The translations under genes and the position numbers were made by a program. Under the pieces are notes generated by a model that was not told the DNA's origin, made no database searches, and saw nothing but the letters and a program-made list of their open reading frames with translations. DNA of 64,000 nucleotides from an uncultured Chloroflexia bacterium (lineage in GTDB: Bacteria; Chloroflexota; Chloroflexia; QHBQ01; JADMIH01). Position 1 is the first letter of the stretch. The number at the start of each line of letters is the position of its first letter. The DNA lies in assembly GCA_963797095.1 (NCBI GenBank), contig CAWCNY010000003.1, positions 256,001 to 320,000 of the forward strand. The letters run 5' to 3'. Shown here piece after piece: positions 20,855-39,275 of the stretch.

Positions 20855-23717
<2,863 letters not shown>

Positions 23718-23725
<8 letters not shown>

Positions 23726-24881
23726 GGGCTACCTCTGTGGAAAGGGCTGCCGCCCTGTTTGGGTCCGCCCTATTGGAGGCAACCTGGGCAAGGAAGCGGT
23801 CAAATAGCCCATACGAATCTGTGGGGCCGGGGCTGGCCTCAGGGTGCCACTGTACGCCCCACACCGGCAGCGACATATGTGCCAACCCTTCCACGGTATC
23901 ATCGTTCAAGTTGACATGGGTAACGCGGTGGTCGGCAGGCAATGAGGACGCGTCCACCACATATCCGTGGTTCTGGGTGGTGAGGTAGAGGCGGCCCGTG
24001 TCGCGCTCAAGCACAGGTTGGTTGGCTCCCCTGTGCCCAAAGCGCATCTTGTGGGTGCTCCCTCCCGCGGCCAGCGCCAGCAGTTGGTGTCCCAGGCAGA
24101 TACCGAAGATCGGCACCCCGCTGCCCTCGACAAGGTCCTTCACGGTGTCGATAGCGTAATCCAACCTGGCGGGGTCGCCCGGCCCGTTCGCGAGAAATAT
24201 CCCATCGGGCTGAAGCCCCGATATCTCATCCGCGCTCATATGCGCCGGCACCACCCACACGCCCGCGCCGCGCTCCAGCAGGCGGTCCAACATACTCTGT
24301 TTCGCCCCGTAATCCAGCAATGCGATGCGTGGTCCTTCCGGCGTAGCGGGTGGGTGCCAGGCAAGCTCGGTAGCGGAGCATTCAGACACGAAATCGATCG
24401 AGTCGTAGTCCAGGCTGCGGGCCATCGAAAGGAGCAATTCCTCCGAAGGCAGTTCTGCCTCCAGGCAAACGGCCAGGGCCACCGGAAGCACCCCATGCGT
24501 GCGCACCTTCCGCACAAGAGAGCGCGTGTCTACCCCCGACATAGCAGGTATACCCTGCGAGCGCAATAGCGTATCCAGGTCATCGTTGCTGTCGCGGTGC
24601 CCACCGCTTGGCATTAGATCGCGCACGATCGCCGCCTGTACGTGAATGCGCGCGCTTTGGTCGGCGGTTGGCCCGGCGCCGTAATTGCCCACCAGCGGAT
24701 ATGTGAAAATCAGAATTTGCCCTGCGTAAGAGGGGTCGGTCAACGCCTCCTGGTAGCCGGTCATGCCGGTTTGGAAGACCAGCTCGCCTGTTACCAGCCC
24801 TGGCGCTCCCGCTCCCCGGCCACGTACCACGGTGCCATCGGCGGCCACCAGCAGAGCCTCCAGCCTTTCACCCGGCATCAT
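23718..24881 (-). CDS. carA: Carbamoyl-phosphate synthase small subunit
   Basis: TGMTGYQEALTDPSY, NGPGDP, GICLGHQ, QWHPEASPGP. Confidence 0.95.
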
Positions 24882-25072
24882 GGCACCTCCATCCAGCCTG
24901 GGGCAACTCATCCGCGGGCCATCTGATCCCTTTGTATATGTACATCAGCTTGTTATCTCTATATGAATCGGACACTGTAGCATCGGCGGCTGCAATGTCC
25001 CTAAACGGTTATAGTATGCAACAGATGAAGATTGCGAATCGCTAAATCCACCAAAATGATTAAGACAAATAG

Positions 25073-25963
25073 TCATTCCCTTCCACTTACGACCAGGGTA
25101 CCCACCCTGCCCGTCGATTCTCCTTGTAAGCTCTCAATAAGCAGTGGCCTCTCCACCGTGCCATCTATCAACTGGACCGAGCGCACACCGGCCTCCAGGG
25201 CCTCTATGCAGTTGCGAACTTTCGGGAGCATCCCCCCCGATATTGCCCCCGACTGCACCAGCGCTTCCAGGTCTGCGGCGGTGCACACCGGCAAACGCGT
25301 CGCAGGATCGGCGGGGTCGCGCAGGATACCCGGCACGTTGGTCAGCATCATCAGCCTGCCCACGCCCAGGGCACAAGCCAAAGTTTGAGCTACCGTATCG
25401 GCATTGACATTGTACACGTTTCCCTCGGTATCGGCAGCCAGAGAGGCAACTGCCGGCGTATACCCCTTCTCAAGCAGTAGAGCTAGCAGGGATATGTCTG
25501 CCGAAATTACGTCGCCAACATGACCAAAATCGACCCATTCCTCCTCCATAAACACGGGCGGGCGGCGGGTAACTCTTACCAGACCGCCATCCACGCCCGA
25601 CAAACCAACCCCGCGAGCGCCATGCTTCCGCAGAGCAGCCAGCAGGTCCACGTTGATCGAGCCTCCGTACACCATCTTGGCTACCTCAAGCGCATCATCG
25701 TCGGTCACCCGCCTCCCCGCCACCTTCCTGACGGTATGCTTCAGCTTCGCAGCCAGAGCATCCGCCTGAGGCCCGCCCCCGTGCACCAGCACCACACCCA
25801 CTCCATTCGCAGACAAAATAGCGATCTGCGACGCAAGCGAGTCGAGCGTGCGGGGGTTCAGCACCACCTCACCACCCACCTTAACCAGCAAGCGCTCCCC
25901 CCTCCAGGCGTTCAGCACGTCCCGGGGCAGGCTTGCAGGATCAGCGTTGGCGGAAAGGGTCAT
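25073..25963 (-). CDS. argB: Acetylglutamate kinase
   Basis: VKVGG, VHGGGPQ, GRRVTD, NVNAD, GGMLPK. Confidence 0.92.
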   Translation of the reverse strand: MTLSANADPASLPRDVLNAWRGERLLVKVGGEVVLNPRTLDSLASQIAILSANGVGVVLVHGGGPQADALAAKLKHTVRKVAGRRVTDDDALEVAKMVYGGSINVDLLAALRKHGARGVGLSGVDGGLVRVTRRPPVFMEEEWVDFGHVGDVISADISLLALLLEKGYTPAVASLAADTEGNVYNVNADTVAQTLACALGVGRLMMLTNVPGILRDPADPATRLPVCTAADLEALVQSGAISGGMLPKVRNCIEALEAGVRSVQLIDGTVERPLLIESLQGESTGRVGTLVVSGRE

Positions 25964-27165
25964 ACCTGCGCAGGCTCCTTGATACTCGTAAGCACACCTT
26001 CAAGCACCGAAACCAGGTGCTCGATATCCTCAGTAGTCACTACCATAGGCGGCATGAGCCGCAACACATTCGGGTCCGCCGAAGTGCCCAATATGATCCC
26101 CCGCTCAAGCATAGCCATCTGCACGGCCTTGGCCGGCACATCCAGGTTGAGTCCCAGCAGCAGGCCCATCCCCCGCACCTCCCGTACATGGGGCAGTTTC
26201 GCCACCCCAGATTTGATCATGCCGCCCATAGCTGCCGCATGAGAGCATAAGTCCTCTTCCAGGATAATCTCAAGCGTGGCAAGCGCAGCAGCACACACCA
26301 GCGGCCCGCCCCCGAAAGTCGAGCCATGCTCGTCCTGCTTCACGGTCTCGGCCACGCGAGTGGAGATCAGGGTCGCACCCATAGGCACGCCGCTTGCGAT
26401 CCCTTTGGCGAGAGTGATGATGTCGGGCACCACGTCCCACTGCTCGCCACACCACAGCTTCCCCGTGCGCCCAAGCCCCGTCTGGATCTCGTCAAAAATC
26501 AGCAGCGCTCCCCGCTTGTCGCACAACTCGCGTAGCCCTCGGTAATACGCAGCCTCCGCCACGCGCACCCCCGCGATACTCTGCACCGGCTCCAGGATCA
26601 CCGCAGCCACATCGTCACCCAATGTCGCCTCGATTGCCCCCAGGTCGCCAAACGCAACGAACTCTACATCCGGCACCAGTGGCTCAAATCCCTGCCTGTA
26701 CTTGGGATAATCGGTCATCGAGAGCGCGCCCATCGTCCGCCCATGAAACGCCCCCTGCAAGGCCAGTATGCGCGGCCGCCCGGTGAACTTACGCGCCAAT
26801 TTTAGGGCCGTCTCGTTGGCCTCCGCCCCCGAATTGCAGAAGAACACCTGCCCATAACCCTCCGGCGCAGCCGAGACAAGCGCCAGGGCATAAGTGGCGC
26901 GCACGTCGTTGTATACGATATTGGAATAAAAGATCAGGCGTGAGGCCTGCTCTTGTATGGCCCGCACCACGCGTGGGTGGCAATGGCCCAGCATCGTCAC
27001 CGCGTGCCCGCAATAAAAGTCGTAGTAAGCGCGACCATCGGCGTCGTAAAGCATTATCCCTTCACCGCGCACCGCCACAATCGGAAGCTTGGCGTACGTG
27101 CCAAGCTGTGATCCCGTTTCCTCTTCGATTACAGATGCGCGCTCTATATCTGTCGTAACTGTCAT
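25960..27165 (-). CDS. argD: Acetylornithine aminotransferase
   Basis: NSGAEANE, FHGRT, DEIQTGLGRTG, AKGIASG, HGSTFGG. Confidence 0.88.
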   Translation of the reverse strand: MTVTTDIERASVIEEETGSQLGTYAKLPIVAVRGEGIMLYDADGRAYYDFYCGHAVTMLGHCHPRVVRAIQEQASRLIFYSNIVYNDVRATYALALVSAAPEGYGQVFFCNSGAEANETALKLARKFTGRPRILALQGAFHGRTMGALSMTDYPKYRQGFEPLVPDVEFVAFGDLGAIEATLGDDVAAVILEPVQSIAGVRVAEAAYYRGLRELCDKRGALLIFDEIQTGLGRTGKLWCGEQWDVVPDIITLAKGIASGVPMGATLISTRVAETVKQDEHGSTFGGGPLVCAAALATLEIILEEDLCSHAAAMGGMIKSGVAKLPHVREVRGMGLLLGLNLDVPAKAVQMAMLERGIILGTSADPNVLRLMPPMVVTTEDIEHLVSVLEGVLTSIKEPAQV

Positions 27166-27226
27166 GCTAACTCCTTGCAAGCAGTTGACGCTTGCAGCTT
27201 TCATGCTAACTATCTTTCCCTTTAAT

Positions 27227-28333
27227 CTAAGGTAACGTGCCCGGAAACTCCAACCCCAGGTGCTCAGGCCAGCCAAACGCTACATTGAGGTTCTGCACGG
27301 CCTGGCCCGCGCCCCCCTTCACCAGGTTATCTATGGCACTCGTGACAATAATCGCACCTTCGCCATCGGTAGCGGCATTCAGGTCGCAGAAGTTGGAGTG
27401 CGACACCACCGCCACTCGCGGCGTATCGACCAATCTCACGAAATACTCCTGCCCGTACGCTTCCTCGTAGATACTCTGCAATTCTGCGTTGCTCACCTGC
27501 CTCCTCGGAAAAGCGTAAGCGGTGGTAAAGATCCCCCTAACCATCGGCGCGGAATGAGGCGTGAACACCACTCGCAAATGATCATTCTCTGTTGATAGCC
27601 ACTTGTTCAACTCCTGCGCTATCTCAGGGCGGTGTCTGTGCTTGAACAGGCCATAAGCGCGAAAGTCGGCGGCGCGGGTGGGGTGGTGCGTCCCCTCCCC
27701 CGGTTCCTTCCCCGATCCCGACGACCCCGTCTTAGAGTCTATCACAACAGACCCGTCGAGCAAACCCGCCCGCGCCAGCGGCGTCAGCGCCAGCAGCGCC
27801 CCCGTCGGGAAGCACCCCGGACAGGCCACCAGCCGCGCCTCCTTAACAGCGTCCCGGTTCCACTCCGTAAGCCCGTAAGCCGCACGAGCGGCCCATTCAG
27901 GCGCGGTGTGCTCCAGGCGATAATACTCCTGAAACGTCCCAGGGTCCATGATCCGAAAATCGCCGCTCATATCGAACACCACCGGCCCCTCCCCACGAGG
28001 GCCGCTCTTACCCCCTACCGCCAGTATTCCCGGCACGCGCTTGATAGCCTGCCCGTGCGGCAGCGCCAGGAACACGGCGGCGTACTCGCTAGCTTCCTCG
28101 TCCGAGATCGAAGCCACAAACTCCAGGTCCGTGAGCCTCGCGAGATGCGGGTGCACTGAACTCACCTTCCGCCCTGCATTGGACCCCGACGTGACGGCAG
28201 CCACCTGCACACTTGGGTGCCCCAGCAAGAGCCGCAACGCCTCGCCCCCGATGTACCCCGATGCGCCCAGGATCGCCACCCGAACAGGTGCCGGCCGGGA
28301 ACTCTGAGGCATAGGGGTATCAGCCACGCTCAC
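27227..28333 (-). CDS. argC: N-acetyl-gamma-glutamyl-phosphate reductase
   Basis: GASGYIG, LALPHG, PGCFPTG, HRHRPEI, IDNLVKGGAGQAVQN. The GTG start overlaps the upstream stop (GTGA). Confidence 0.93.
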   Translation of the reverse strand: MSVADTPMPQSSRPAPVRVAILGASGYIGGEALRLLLGHPSVQVAAVTSGSNAGRKVSSVHPHLARLTDLEFVASISDEEASEYAAVFLALPHGQAIKRVPGILAVGGKSGPRGEGPVVFDMSGDFRIMDPGTFQEYYRLEHTAPEWAARAAYGLTEWNRDAVKEARLVACPGCFPTGALLALTPLARAGLLDGSVVIDSKTGSSGSGKEPGEGTHHPTRAADFRAYGLFKHRHRPEIAQELNKWLSTENDHLRVVFTPHSAPMVRGIFTTAYAFPRRQVSNAELQSIYEEAYGQEYFVRLVDTPRVAVVSHSNFCDLNAATDGEGAIIVTSAIDNLVKGGAGQAVQNLNVAFGWPEHLGLEFPGTLP

Positions 28334-29397
28334 GACGCCACGACCTCCCTCGGCGCGACCTCCGGCAACAGCTGCCTGCCGCAAATCTTGTGCTCAACGA
28401 TATCCGCCAGCGCATCAGGGTGCCAGCGCCCGTTGACCGCCGCCCTGCCAAAACGCTGCTGAATATAGTCTACTCCTGCGCTGTTGTCGGTGGCTGGCCC
28501 CGAAATGCAATCCACCTGCAAACCGAACTGCCCCAGGAAAAGCAGACCACCCCAGGCCGCCACCAGGTCGTTAGCGCACAGCACGTGCGCCTTCACGTGC
28601 CCCATCAACTCGCCATCCTGAAGCAGCAGATCAACCCCGTAGTGCCCCATGATCCCATCCCCAAACTCCACAATAATGGCGTCAGGGTTGCTTTCGTTGA
28701 GGGCCGCAATTATGCCCTTCGCCGCTGGCACCAGGCAATCGTCGGTGTGTGTAGTCGAAGGCAGACCCGCATCGCTGAACGATAACGCATGTACCGCTCC
28801 TCTCGCCCGCATATTGAGCAGGTCGCGCTGAGTTGCTACCCCGGCCAGCTTGGCCGCCGCCACTCGGTAGCCCTTATCCCCTAAGATCCTGATGATCTCG
28901 CAGGCCGCAGTGGTCTTGCCTGCGTTCATACAGGTGCCGGAAACGAGGATAATAGGCGCGGAGCGAGAAAGGTGGCTCCGCCAGGGGAGCGCATAGTGGG
29001 CGATATTTGCGGGCTTGCCATCGACCACCGCCGCGCCAAGCACTCGCACAGGCAAAGGCAAACCGAAATCGGTGTTTATCGAGGAGCAAAGCCCTACCAC
29101 CCCACCCATATTGAGGATATGTAACACGTCGCCCTCGGAGACGCGGTCAGGGATCGCGCCGACGTATCCTTTCAGTGCCTGACGCTCCCCCAGTACCCCC
29201 GCGATTCGGTCGCCCTTGACAATCGGGGCCATTACCCCGCCAACCGTCTCAAGCTCTCCGTAGACATCTTTCTCTTCCAGGGCTTCGACTATCACTACCA
29301 TGCCCCGTTCGGCAGGAATCGTGCGGGTGATCTCAACCTCGCGAGGTAGCCCTACCCTCGTGGCGACCGAGGCGATCTTATCCAGCGTAATGCGCAT
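28330..29397 (-). CDS. DUF1611/DgcN-like P-loop protein, first gene of the arg operon
   Basis: GTCMNAGKTT P-loop, AAAKLAG, DAGLPST, IVEFGDG. Strong SD AGGAGG. Coupled to argC. Confidence 0.7.
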   Translation of the reverse strand: MRITLDKIASVATRVGLPREVEITRTIPAERGMVVIVEALEEKDVYGELETVGGVMAPIVKGDRIAGVLGERQALKGYVGAIPDRVSEGDVLHILNMGGVVGLCSSINTDFGLPLPVRVLGAAVVDGKPANIAHYALPWRSHLSRSAPIILVSGTCMNAGKTTAACEIIRILGDKGYRVAAAKLAGVATQRDLLNMRARGAVHALSFSDAGLPSTTHTDDCLVPAAKGIIAALNESNPDAIIVEFGDGIMGHYGVDLLLQDGELMGHVKAHVLCANDLVAAWGGLLFLGQFGLQVDCISGPATDNSAGVDYIQQRFGRAAVNGRWHPDALADIVEHKICGRQLLPEVAPREVVAS

Positions 29398-29577
29398 ATC
29401 TCCTCCTTCTCCCGCAACTCACATCGGCAAAAACCGGAGTGCGGTAGACGGCTCTGATGCCTATTGCGCGCAACGCTGGACGCAGGAAGGACGACGCTGT
29501 CATCGAGTGCCGGATTGAACCGGCGGTTTTCCCAGGGCTGGGGAACCTTGCTTACTTTCTCATACCAGGGTAAGGCA

Positions 29578-29850
29578 TACAAAAGCTCCCGCCCCCTGCA
29601 AGGGACGAGAGCCACATTACTCCCGCGGTGCCACCCTCATTGTCACATCAATCTTCTGTGACCGCTCATCGGTTGTTTGCTACGTGGTAACCATCCACCC
29701 CTCCTACTTGCACGCACCGGGGCGCGTACTTTCTTCGGCGGGCCGCTCTGTGGCGGGTTCCTTGCCGCAGGTACTTCGGGCTTCCACTCCCCCCGATTCG
29801 CTGAGCGTCCTTACAGCAATTACTATTCCACATCATCGCGGGCGTGCGGC
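29578..29850 (-). ncRNA. T-box riboswitch, probable Arg (CGC) specifier, with intrinsic terminator
   Basis: Minus strand shows GCGATGA...AGTA...CAGCGAATCGGGG..GGAAGCCCGA (stem I), GAACC-CGC-C (specifier), AATGAGGGTGGCACCGCGGG...CTCGTCCC (T-box antiterminator), and a CTCGTCCCTTGCAGGGGGCGGGAGCTTTT terminator. Confidence 0.9.
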
Positions 29851-29880
29851 CAAAATGCCGCTATTCGCTTGTTGGGGAGT

Positions 29881-29909
29881 AGTTTACCACACGCCCCCAC
29901 ACGTGTCAA
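29881..29909 (-). promoter_or_regulatory. Sigma70 promoter of the T-box/arg operon
   Basis: TTGACA-17 bp-TAAACT with extended -10 TG. Confidence 0.8.
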
Positions 29910-29997: not shown

Positions 29998-30091
29998 CTC
30001 TAAATAGCCAAAAATGGCGGCGACGCCGCCATTTTTGGCTATTTAGAAGTGCCCCTCCCCAAAATTTCGGGAGGGGTTGGGGTGGGGTCTT
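29998..30091. repeat. Bipartite hairpin element: ~50-bp perfect inverted repeat plus gcccctcccc hairpin
   Basis: tctaaatagccaaaaatggcggcg-a-cgccgccatttttggctatttaga followed by gcccctccccaaaatttcgggaggggttggggtggggtct. Confidence 0.8.
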
Positions 30092-39085: not shown

Positions 39086-39189
39086 AAATGCCAGGCAGGA
39101 CACCCATTGTGGGGAATATCATCGCATAAAGATAAAGCCTGTAGGGGCATCCACCAGCGATACCCCAATGGATTGCCAACAAAGCCAAA

Positions 39190-39275
39190 GTCCCGTAGGG
39201 ACTCTAGAGAGTAGCCCAGGGCGTAAGCCCTGTGGATGATATGCCACCCAAGCAAGTAGTCCCGTAGGGACGTAA
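39190..39275. repeat. REP-like element, copy 2
   Basis: gtcccgtagggac...agcccagggcgtaagccctgtgg...gtcccgtagggacg. Confidence 0.75.

Follow-up and report, generated by a model that had tools for sequence, protein, structure and literature searches.

A gene for a 355-amino-acid P-loop protein, X1, was found on the minus strand (28330..29397) of a 64,000-nucleotide stretch of DNA from an uncultured Chloroflexia bacterium (assembly GCA_963797095.1, contig CAWCNY010000003.1, positions 256,001 to 320,000), referred to below as the window. It stands ahead of argC, argD and argB in an arginine operon, and a second copy, X2, is encoded in the same genome; X denotes the whole family. Judged from sequence comparison and gene context, X1 and X2 probably catalyse the first step, otherwise missing, of an arginine pathway with N-acyl-protected intermediates, by acylating the amino group of L-glutamate; this prediction is the best available for X. 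The functional idea is not new, having already been printed as a prediction for a family that is apparently the same: in Appendix 2 of the GapMind preprint of 2026, the family of ACG33_RS14135 (UniProt A0A127FCT3) is given as a predicted alternative ArgA (bioRxiv 10.1101/2024.10.14.618325).

In many bacteria able to grow without arginine, the enzyme for the first step of its synthesis cannot be recognised. If the prediction is true, X would represent a third way of N-acylating glutamate, unrelated to the GNAT enzymes and to ArgJ, and would fill a gap in the metabolic reconstruction of Planctomycetota, Acidobacteriota, Elusimicrobiota, some Chloroflexia and others. What is added here is an independent confirmation of the printed prediction from other genomes, and more of them, together with a clear negative on membership in the DUF1611 family. 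Also added are two near-identical copies under different leaders, a Gln at position 92 of the N-acylornithine carbamoyltransferase (ArgF'), fusions of X with ArgB and with ArgC, and a T-box, possibly of the proline type, ahead of arginine genes in a clade in which proBAC were not found.

The presence of X in arg operons of genomes without the usual first enzyme suggests that it most likely acylates glutamate. In the proposed scheme X would be a non-orthologous replacement of ArgA/ArgJ: it would acylate the amino group of L-glutamate, ArgB, ArgC and ArgD would process the product, and ArgF', a deacylase, ArgG and ArgH would then complete the pathway. On the model of DgcN, a DUF1611 enzyme, the predicted donor is most likely an acyl-CoA, whose phosphates the P-loop would bind.

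Distribution and gene neighbourhood of X

ArgJ was not found in the window's genome, which is 93% complete and in 8 contigs, nor in any of 41 relatives, nor in any of 50 X-bearing genomes of other phyla, drawn from 72 non-Chloroflexia loci and with completeness not given. The ArgA model TIGR01890 had no match above its cut-off in these 50 genomes; the matches covered the kinase half only and corresponded to ArgB, and the window's genome, in which classical ArgA was likewise not found, showed the same kinase-half pattern. X itself was present in 24 of the 41 relatives and in 10 of the 12 of high quality. In a sample of 201 genomes of the phylum, ArgJ was found in 142, including all 19 genomes of two other families of the same class (f2 and f3), where X was not found; the only one of the 201 with X was the window's own. 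Unpublished genomes contribute to these tallies (G216, G221, G222 and G232 among the relatives, G173 and G038 in the phylum count of ArgJ); without them X is in 20 of 37 relatives and ArgJ in none of the 37, and ArgJ is in 140 of 199 genomes of the phylum. The sampled genomes are related to one another, so all these counts overstate independence. X-bearing genomes without ArgJ and ArgA form the pattern that a replacement predicts, and two checks proposed with the initial annotation, a search of the genome for argA and argJ and a test of the anti-correlation of X with them, thus came out in its favour.

The family was sized by searching 1.84 billion proteins, which gave 842 cluster representatives at E values up to 1e-10; the named homologues are nearly all annotated as 'hypothetical'. 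For the neighbourhood counts one genome per species was scanned, which yielded 587 relatives, and the best 80 loci of the 587 were kept. Neighbouring genes at these loci were called by tblastn with the window genome's own arg proteins (carB was among the queries), and the rest were clustered. The operon linkage was consistent: arg or car genes were beside X in 78 of the 80 loci, with argC directly downstream in 63 and argG directly upstream in 62, so that the synteny of the homologues, another point raised in the initial annotation, was observed. The loci span about ten phyla, namely Planctomycetota, Acidobacteriota, Elusimicrobiota, Gemmatimonadota, Bdellovibrionota, Myxococcota and others, plus the Chloroflexia. 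The usual order is argG-X-argC-argD-argF'-argB-(gap)-argH, often with argR ahead of argG, the gap being filled by an M20 deacylase. An ArgR-like repressor neighbours X in 32 of the 80 loci and an M20 deacylase of the ArgE/DapE type in 13, and the next cluster was seen in only 8.

These neighbourhoods bear on the possibility that X is an accessory NTPase, acting in metal insertion, assembly or regulation of the arginine enzymes, while an unrecognised acyltransferase elsewhere performs the first step. X has weak matches to MobB and to CobW-type NTPases, which are often accessory proteins, and M20 metallo-deacylases are encoded in the same operons; many GNAT genes of any genome are uncharacterised, and one weak GNAT match was found in the window's genome (C3:439920). 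However, X is found whether or not the operon has an M20 gene, no conserved unknown gene other than the clusters just named accompanies it, and the exclusion of ArgJ and ArgA is predicted by a replacement and not expected of an accessory factor. We consider an accessory role improbable.

The second copy, X2, is 75% identical to X1 and lies at C5:277062-278087, inside an argG-X2-argF'-argH operon behind its own T-box. A tree of the family showed the X proteins of Chloroflexia to be monophyletic (support 100/99). Where one genome carried two copies (L012 and L013), these were sisters with support of 100/100, and the copies did not group by operon type. Different jobs for X1 and X2 were considered and rejected on these grounds. 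Same-genome copies are apparently recent duplicates, so that X1 and X2 probably share the same chemistry.

The duplicates also argue against a late role of X in the pathway, in which it would remove or transfer the acyl group in the manner of ArgE or ArgJ, because they are not old specialised paralogues. What speaks for a late role is that neither arg operon of the window's genome encodes a deacylase, that X2 adjoins argF', and that the best M20 match in this genome, which is encoded elsewhere, shares only 31% identity with the deacylase of the operons. Against this, the operon M20 deacylase coexists with X in the 13 loci mentioned above, which makes a deacylase role for X unlikely; the P-loop fold is not a known hydrolase of such a kind; and the synthase step would remain missing. 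A late role is therefore very improbable, and with it the acetyl-recycling enzyme that the initial annotation had offered as an alternative.

Three cluster representatives contain X fused to another arginine enzyme: one joins X to an ArgB-like kinase (P0177, 626 amino acids) and two join X to ArgC (P0390 and P0391, 731 and 721 amino acids). These forms are rare, each cluster consisting of one sequence, and may be real fusions or frame errors; the X-ArgC proteins could arise from frame errors at an overlapping stop and start. If real, the fusions would tie X to the early steps of the pathway. In two relatives (G226 and G237; loci L142 and L143 with L122 and L123) a single X is part of an unsplit operon, T-box-argG-T-box-X-argC-argD-argB-argF'-argH. 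This arrangement resembles what would have preceded the splitting and duplication seen in the window's genus.

The P-loop protein and the acyl group

X1 consists of an N-terminal domain of about 145 amino acids followed by an NTP-binding domain resembling BioD, CobQ and MobB. In an alignment of 59 diverse homologues, G160, K161, K183 and E244 were invariant, and T162 and D239 were kept in at least 90%. The P-loop is intact across the family, with a Walker A motif GxxxxGK[ST] and, behind a hydrophobic strand, an acidic Walker B. The conserved residues of the N-terminal domain are S10, G32, E50, G70, R72, G80 and P83.

In the initial annotation X1 had been assigned by eye to DUF1611, the family of DgcN. 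Pfam gave X1 only sub-threshold P-loop matches (CbiA 20.6 bits, MobB 18.3, DUF1611 16.4). The match to DUF1611 (PF07755; cut-off 25 bits) was confined to the 36 residues 146-181. Weak Pfam matches among the 59 homologues were to MobB in 25, CbiA in 23 and DUF1611 in 14 (best E for DUF1611 1.3e-05), and the NCBIfam matches of X1, to CobQ, MobB and BioD, were all sub-threshold. Profile-profile alignment (hhalign) of the 59 homologues with nine genuine DUF1611 proteins from Chloroflexota genomes joined 36 P-loop columns at a probability of 17.5%. The DUF1611 structures 2OBN, 7XRJ and 2G0T were absent among the 30 matches of the X profile to the PDB at E up to 10; as a positive control the DUF1611 profile retrieved all three (E 9.5e-104, 5.3e-85 and 2.1e-68), which confirmed 7XRJ as a DUF1611 protein. 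Sequence-based searches of the PDB returned P-loop matches only (FtsY, BioD, MobB). The Atlas does not contain X1 itself; for the homologues P0037 and P0048, the second with a model of pTM 0.89, every structural neighbour cluster belonged to the X family, and 11-18% of the members carried a weak tag for DUF1611, MobB or CbiA. The DUF1611/DgcN family label was rejected on the basis of these searches. By sequence X is not a member of DUF1611, and its kinship with DgcN would be at most a remote one of superfamily or fold. The alignment consensus lines of X and DUF1611 do have a common layout, G-[ST]-x-x-x-x-G-K-[TM]-T, a strand and then hhhE-G-x-G, which makes a superfamily relation plausible.

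The same P-loop matches raise the possibility that X is an ATP-dependent amide ligase, which would convert a free acid (acetate, succinate or another) to an acyl phosphate and pass the acyl group to glutamate, as in BioD, CobB/CobQ and CTP synthase. By sequence the P-loop domain is matched best by BioD, CbiA/CobQ and MobB, and X keeps the Lys and Thr of Walker A, K183 after strand 2 and a Walker-B-like E-x-G-D-G motif, a combination which we take to be the BioD-type layout. However, the matches span only about 35-50 residues, and the only glutamate-acylating relative to have been named, DgcN, is an acetyltransferase by its published description. A ligase is unlikely, if somewhat less so than an accessory NTPase.

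The nature of the acyl group was approached through ArgF'. The ArgF' proteins beside X are of the N-acylornithine carbamoyltransferase type (NF003384, 396 bits for the protein of the window's genome against a cut-off of 288; two others were similar). Position 92 was anchored on the Xanthomonas campestris AOTCase, PDB 3KZC for the wild type and 3L05 for the mutant. The residue was Thr in 26, Ala in 14, Gln in 4, Ser in 2, Val in 1 and Pro in 1 of the 48 ArgF-like genes, out of 50, that were alignable, and Glu in none; the remaining two are Bdellovibrionota genes of low identity. In the window's genome the position is held by Gln. Shi et al. in 2007 reportedly switched the specificity of the enzyme to N-succinylornithine by replacing Glu92 with Ala, Pro, Ser or Val. 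Since ArgF' was never found with the acetyl-specifying Glu92, acetyl is unlikely in most lineages, and the predicted acyl group is probably not acetyl. The residues at position 92 would favour succinyl in most lineages; for the Gln of the window's genome, as for Thr, the specificity is not predicted. The initial annotation had proposed an L-glutamate N-acetyltransferase that starts arginine synthesis. Its core is supported by the linkage to arg genes, the absence of ArgJ and ArgA from the X-bearing genomes examined and an acylating first step that would otherwise be missing, whereas an acetyl group is improbable, given the lack of Glu92 in ArgF'.

A canonical ornithine carbamoyltransferase (412 bits) is also encoded in the window's genome at C3:355587-357687 (L140 4087-6187), directly after a gene of the amino-acid-kinase family resembling carbamate kinase. 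This pair looks catabolic, suggesting that a citrulline/arginine route of breakdown exists next to the biosynthetic ArgF'. A pathway with a LysW-type carrier was rejected because ArgB, ArgC and ArgD score best as acetylglutamate-type enzymes, and no search aimed at LysW or LysX was made.

Several points weigh against X as the glutamate-acylating enzyme. Sequence methods related it to no acyltransferase, the only matches being the P-loop matches to MobB, CbiA, BioD, FtsY and DUF1611, and the P-loop enzymes of its clade are mostly ATP-dependent ligases, so that the chemistry may differ. A GNAT protein from another part of the genome might be the actual synthase. ArgJ was also not found in the 17 of the 41 relatives in which X was not found, many of these genomes being incomplete, and two of the 80 loci (L012 and L042) have no arg neighbour. 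In a search for a link to A0A127FCT3, no named Steroidobacter protein was among the 120 matches listed for a proteobacterial X member. Finally, the role of X is a prediction only, in the preprint as here.

The operon and its T-box leader

The genes following X1 are all on the minus strand. The gene argC (27227..28333) scored 378.9 bits with TIGR01850 (cut-off 233.6), and argD, the N-acylornithine aminotransferase, scored 420.7 bits with TIGR00707 (cut-off 410.05) and matched Aminotran_3; its longest reading frame is 25960..27276, and the true start is probably further downstream. The N-acylglutamate kinase gene argB (25073..25963; TIGR00761, 212.3 bits, cut-off 151.3) is followed by carA (23718..24911; Pfam CPSase_sm_chain and GATase) and carB (20855..23725; assigned from reading the translation), for the small and large subunits of carbamoyl-phosphate synthase. 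A Pfam scan of the operon proteins found no GNAT or ArgJ domain. The initial annotation had described this operon, with its 355-residue P-loop protein containing GTCMNAGKTT, its argC-argD-argB-carA-carB order and its lack of argA, argJ and GNAT genes, and all of this agrees with the present results. It had also described X1 and argC as coupled by a GTGA overlap. The tetranucleotide is present at 28333..28330 on the minus strand and combines the stop of X1 with a possible GTG start of argC at 28333, but an ATG 18 nucleotides further on, at 28312, is an equally possible start.

X1 begins with ATG about 190 nucleotides past a T-box leader (29598..29845, minus strand). The leader matches RF00230 over its full length (1-219) with 75.8 bits and an E value of 1.6e-16, and has a stem I with the specifier loop GAA-CCC-G and the T-box sequence AGGGUGGCACCGCG. 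This conserved sequence, with the UGGN bulge as aligned to the model, and the competing terminator are both present; the intrinsic terminator of the expression platform (29584..29613, minus strand) has a 13-pair stem with 8 GC pairs and a TTTGT tail, and overlaps the 3' end of the T-box match. Upstream, a sigma-70-like promoter, TTGACA-17-TAAACT with a TG extension (29881..29909, minus strand), agrees with the consensus in 10 of 12 positions, one site being found against a mean of 0.3 in shuffled sequences. It is a consensus match only, and as such the promoter that had been annotated ahead of the T-box was recovered. Just upstream of it, at 29999-30047, lies a near-perfect 49-nucleotide palindrome which scores as a bidirectional terminator-like hairpin and also yields spurious microRNA matches.

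Although the match to RF00230 is full-length and its E value low, its score is below the Rfam gathering score of 93, so that a scan of the window at this threshold misses the T-box and reports a single Rfam match, an Acido-Lenti-1 small RNA motif at 39189-39234 on the minus strand (38.5 bits; gathering score 37). Nine of the 13 T-box matches in the whole genome score below 93, so that scans at the gathering threshold under-report T-boxes in this lineage. Homologous leaders were found upstream of X or argG in relatives. Two homologous T-box classes were distinguished among the leaders of the window (29598-29845, minus strand), of locus L003 (11446-11687, minus strand) and of loci L006-L012 and L122-L139.

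The initial annotation had read the specifier of the window leader as CGC, an arginine codon. In T-box leaders the specifier codon is followed by an unpaired purine which stacks on the lower helix (PMC2879506). This rule was calibrated on T-boxes of the same genome, which gave TGG for trpE and trpS, ACC for thrS, GTC for valS, TTC for pheS, GGC for glyS and GAC for aspS, the gene names coming from reading of the N-termini. According to cmscan and the leader alignments, the window leader reads GAA-CCC-G-CCAC, with CCC-G in canonical register directly before the lower helix CCAC. By the purine-before-helix rule the specifier is thus CCC, for proline, and the triplet CGC is shifted by 2 nucleotides and has its last base inside the helix. 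The T-box of the initial annotation was retained, but its CGC specifier is doubtful. The argG leader of the same genome reads CGC-G. Among 27 related leaders, all seven argG leaders had CGC, and the 20 leaders directly before X had CCG in 10, CCC in 7 and CGC in 3. Tandem T-boxes in one genome (L008) carried CCG and then CGC, and the two relatives with the unsplit operon had the CGC leader before argG and a CCC leader before X.

In favour of proline are the canonical geometry, the change between CCC and CCG, which is synonymous for this amino acid, and the leader of L012, which has no Arg codon in any register. The genes proB, proA and proC were not found in the window's genome, and proA was found in none of the 41 relatives (none of 37 without the unpublished genomes). 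A gene of the ornithine-cyclodeaminase family is present (C3:1069736-1070641), as it is in 27 of the 41 relatives (24 of 37), so that proline may come from ornithine. In favour of arginine, CGC, CGT or CGG can be read 1-2 bases downstream in 19 of the 20 X leaders, and the UGGC bulge pairs with G73 of the genome's tRNA-Arg(GCG) and not with A73 of tRNA-Pro, a bulge-discriminator rule that also applied to all ten further leaders of this genome that were checked, in one case through a G-U pair. No tRNA-Pro(GGG) was found in the genome. A proline gate before argF' and argH in the unsplit operons would make poor regulatory sense, which also counts for arginine. For the window leader the two readings appear about evenly balanced, and for the leader class as a whole the sequences would speak somewhat in favour of proline; the label 'Arg T-box' is unproven. 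Taken together, these observations allow a tentative and rather doubtful picture of this Chloroflexia clade, in which the acyl-protected arginine pathway would also be the sole route to proline, the leader of X-argC-argD-argB would sense proline and that of argG arginine, X would have been duplicated at the operon split so that each regulon has a copy, and X would be a new, non-GNAT P-loop enzyme of glutamate acylation.

Two further features of the genome were recorded. A dense array of tRNA genes at C2:1272500-1283400 has unusual acceptor stems and discriminators, for example A73 in a tRNA-Arg(GCG) and C73 in a tRNA-Trp; it stands apart from the core set and may belong to a mobile element. 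A SAM riboswitch (80.7 bits) was found at L003 2090-2192 on the plus strand, at about C5:270090, ahead of genes for an aspartokinase-like protein (AA_kinase and ACT), an alpha/beta hydrolase and a Cys/Met PLP enzyme, which look like a methionine-branch operon beside the second arg operon.

Comparison with known systems

Classical ArgA and ArgJ resemble X in the role proposed for it, as they supply N-acetylglutamate to ArgB. They differ in having AAK+GNAT and Ntn-type folds, and neither was found in the X-bearing genomes examined. BioD, CobQ/CbiA and MobB provide the best matches for residues of about 145-245 of X, with Walker A, the following helix and the strand-2 Lys, but all these matches are below curated cut-offs, and X has an extra conserved N-terminal domain and another genomic role.

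DgcN (PDB 7XRJ), named in print as a D-glutamate N-acetyltransferase, has two domains in about 340-355 amino acids, a GxxxxGK[TM]T P-loop and an hhhE-G-x-G motif, as X does, and its substrate is a glutamate that becomes N-acylated, as predicted for X. It shows no family-level similarity to X, its N-terminal domain is unrelated by sequence, and it serves D-glutamate catabolism and not arginine synthesis. Another related system is ArgA2 (BT3761), a GNAT-type N-succinylglutamate synthase of Bacteroidetes with genetic support (PMC9026213). ArgA2 shares with X both the proposed reaction and the niche, that is, arg operons with an N-acylornithine carbamoyltransferase and without ArgA or ArgJ, whereas it has a GNAT fold and genetic support, and X has no GNAT match and a predicted role.

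According to Appendix 2 of the GapMind preprint, the protein described there is 'virtually always' in arg operons and never occurs with ArgA, has a remote Foldseek likeness to 7XRJ (E 1.4e-7, rmsd 5.6 A), and neighbours an ArgF' without Glu92, with Gln at that position in 2 of 70 cases (bioRxiv 10.1101/2024.10.14.618325). Annotated as hypothetical, it is accompanied in these operons by argR, argG, argC, argD, argF', argB, argE and argH, all of which is true of X; the lack of co-occurrence with ArgA and the ArgF' without Glu92 were likewise reproduced, the two families being matched by description and gene context. The Atlas neighbour clusters of X come commonly from Pseudomonadota. X as described here differs from the GapMind protein in its presence in Chloroflexia, its duplication in two split operons, its control by T-boxes and the Gln92 of the accompanying ArgF'.

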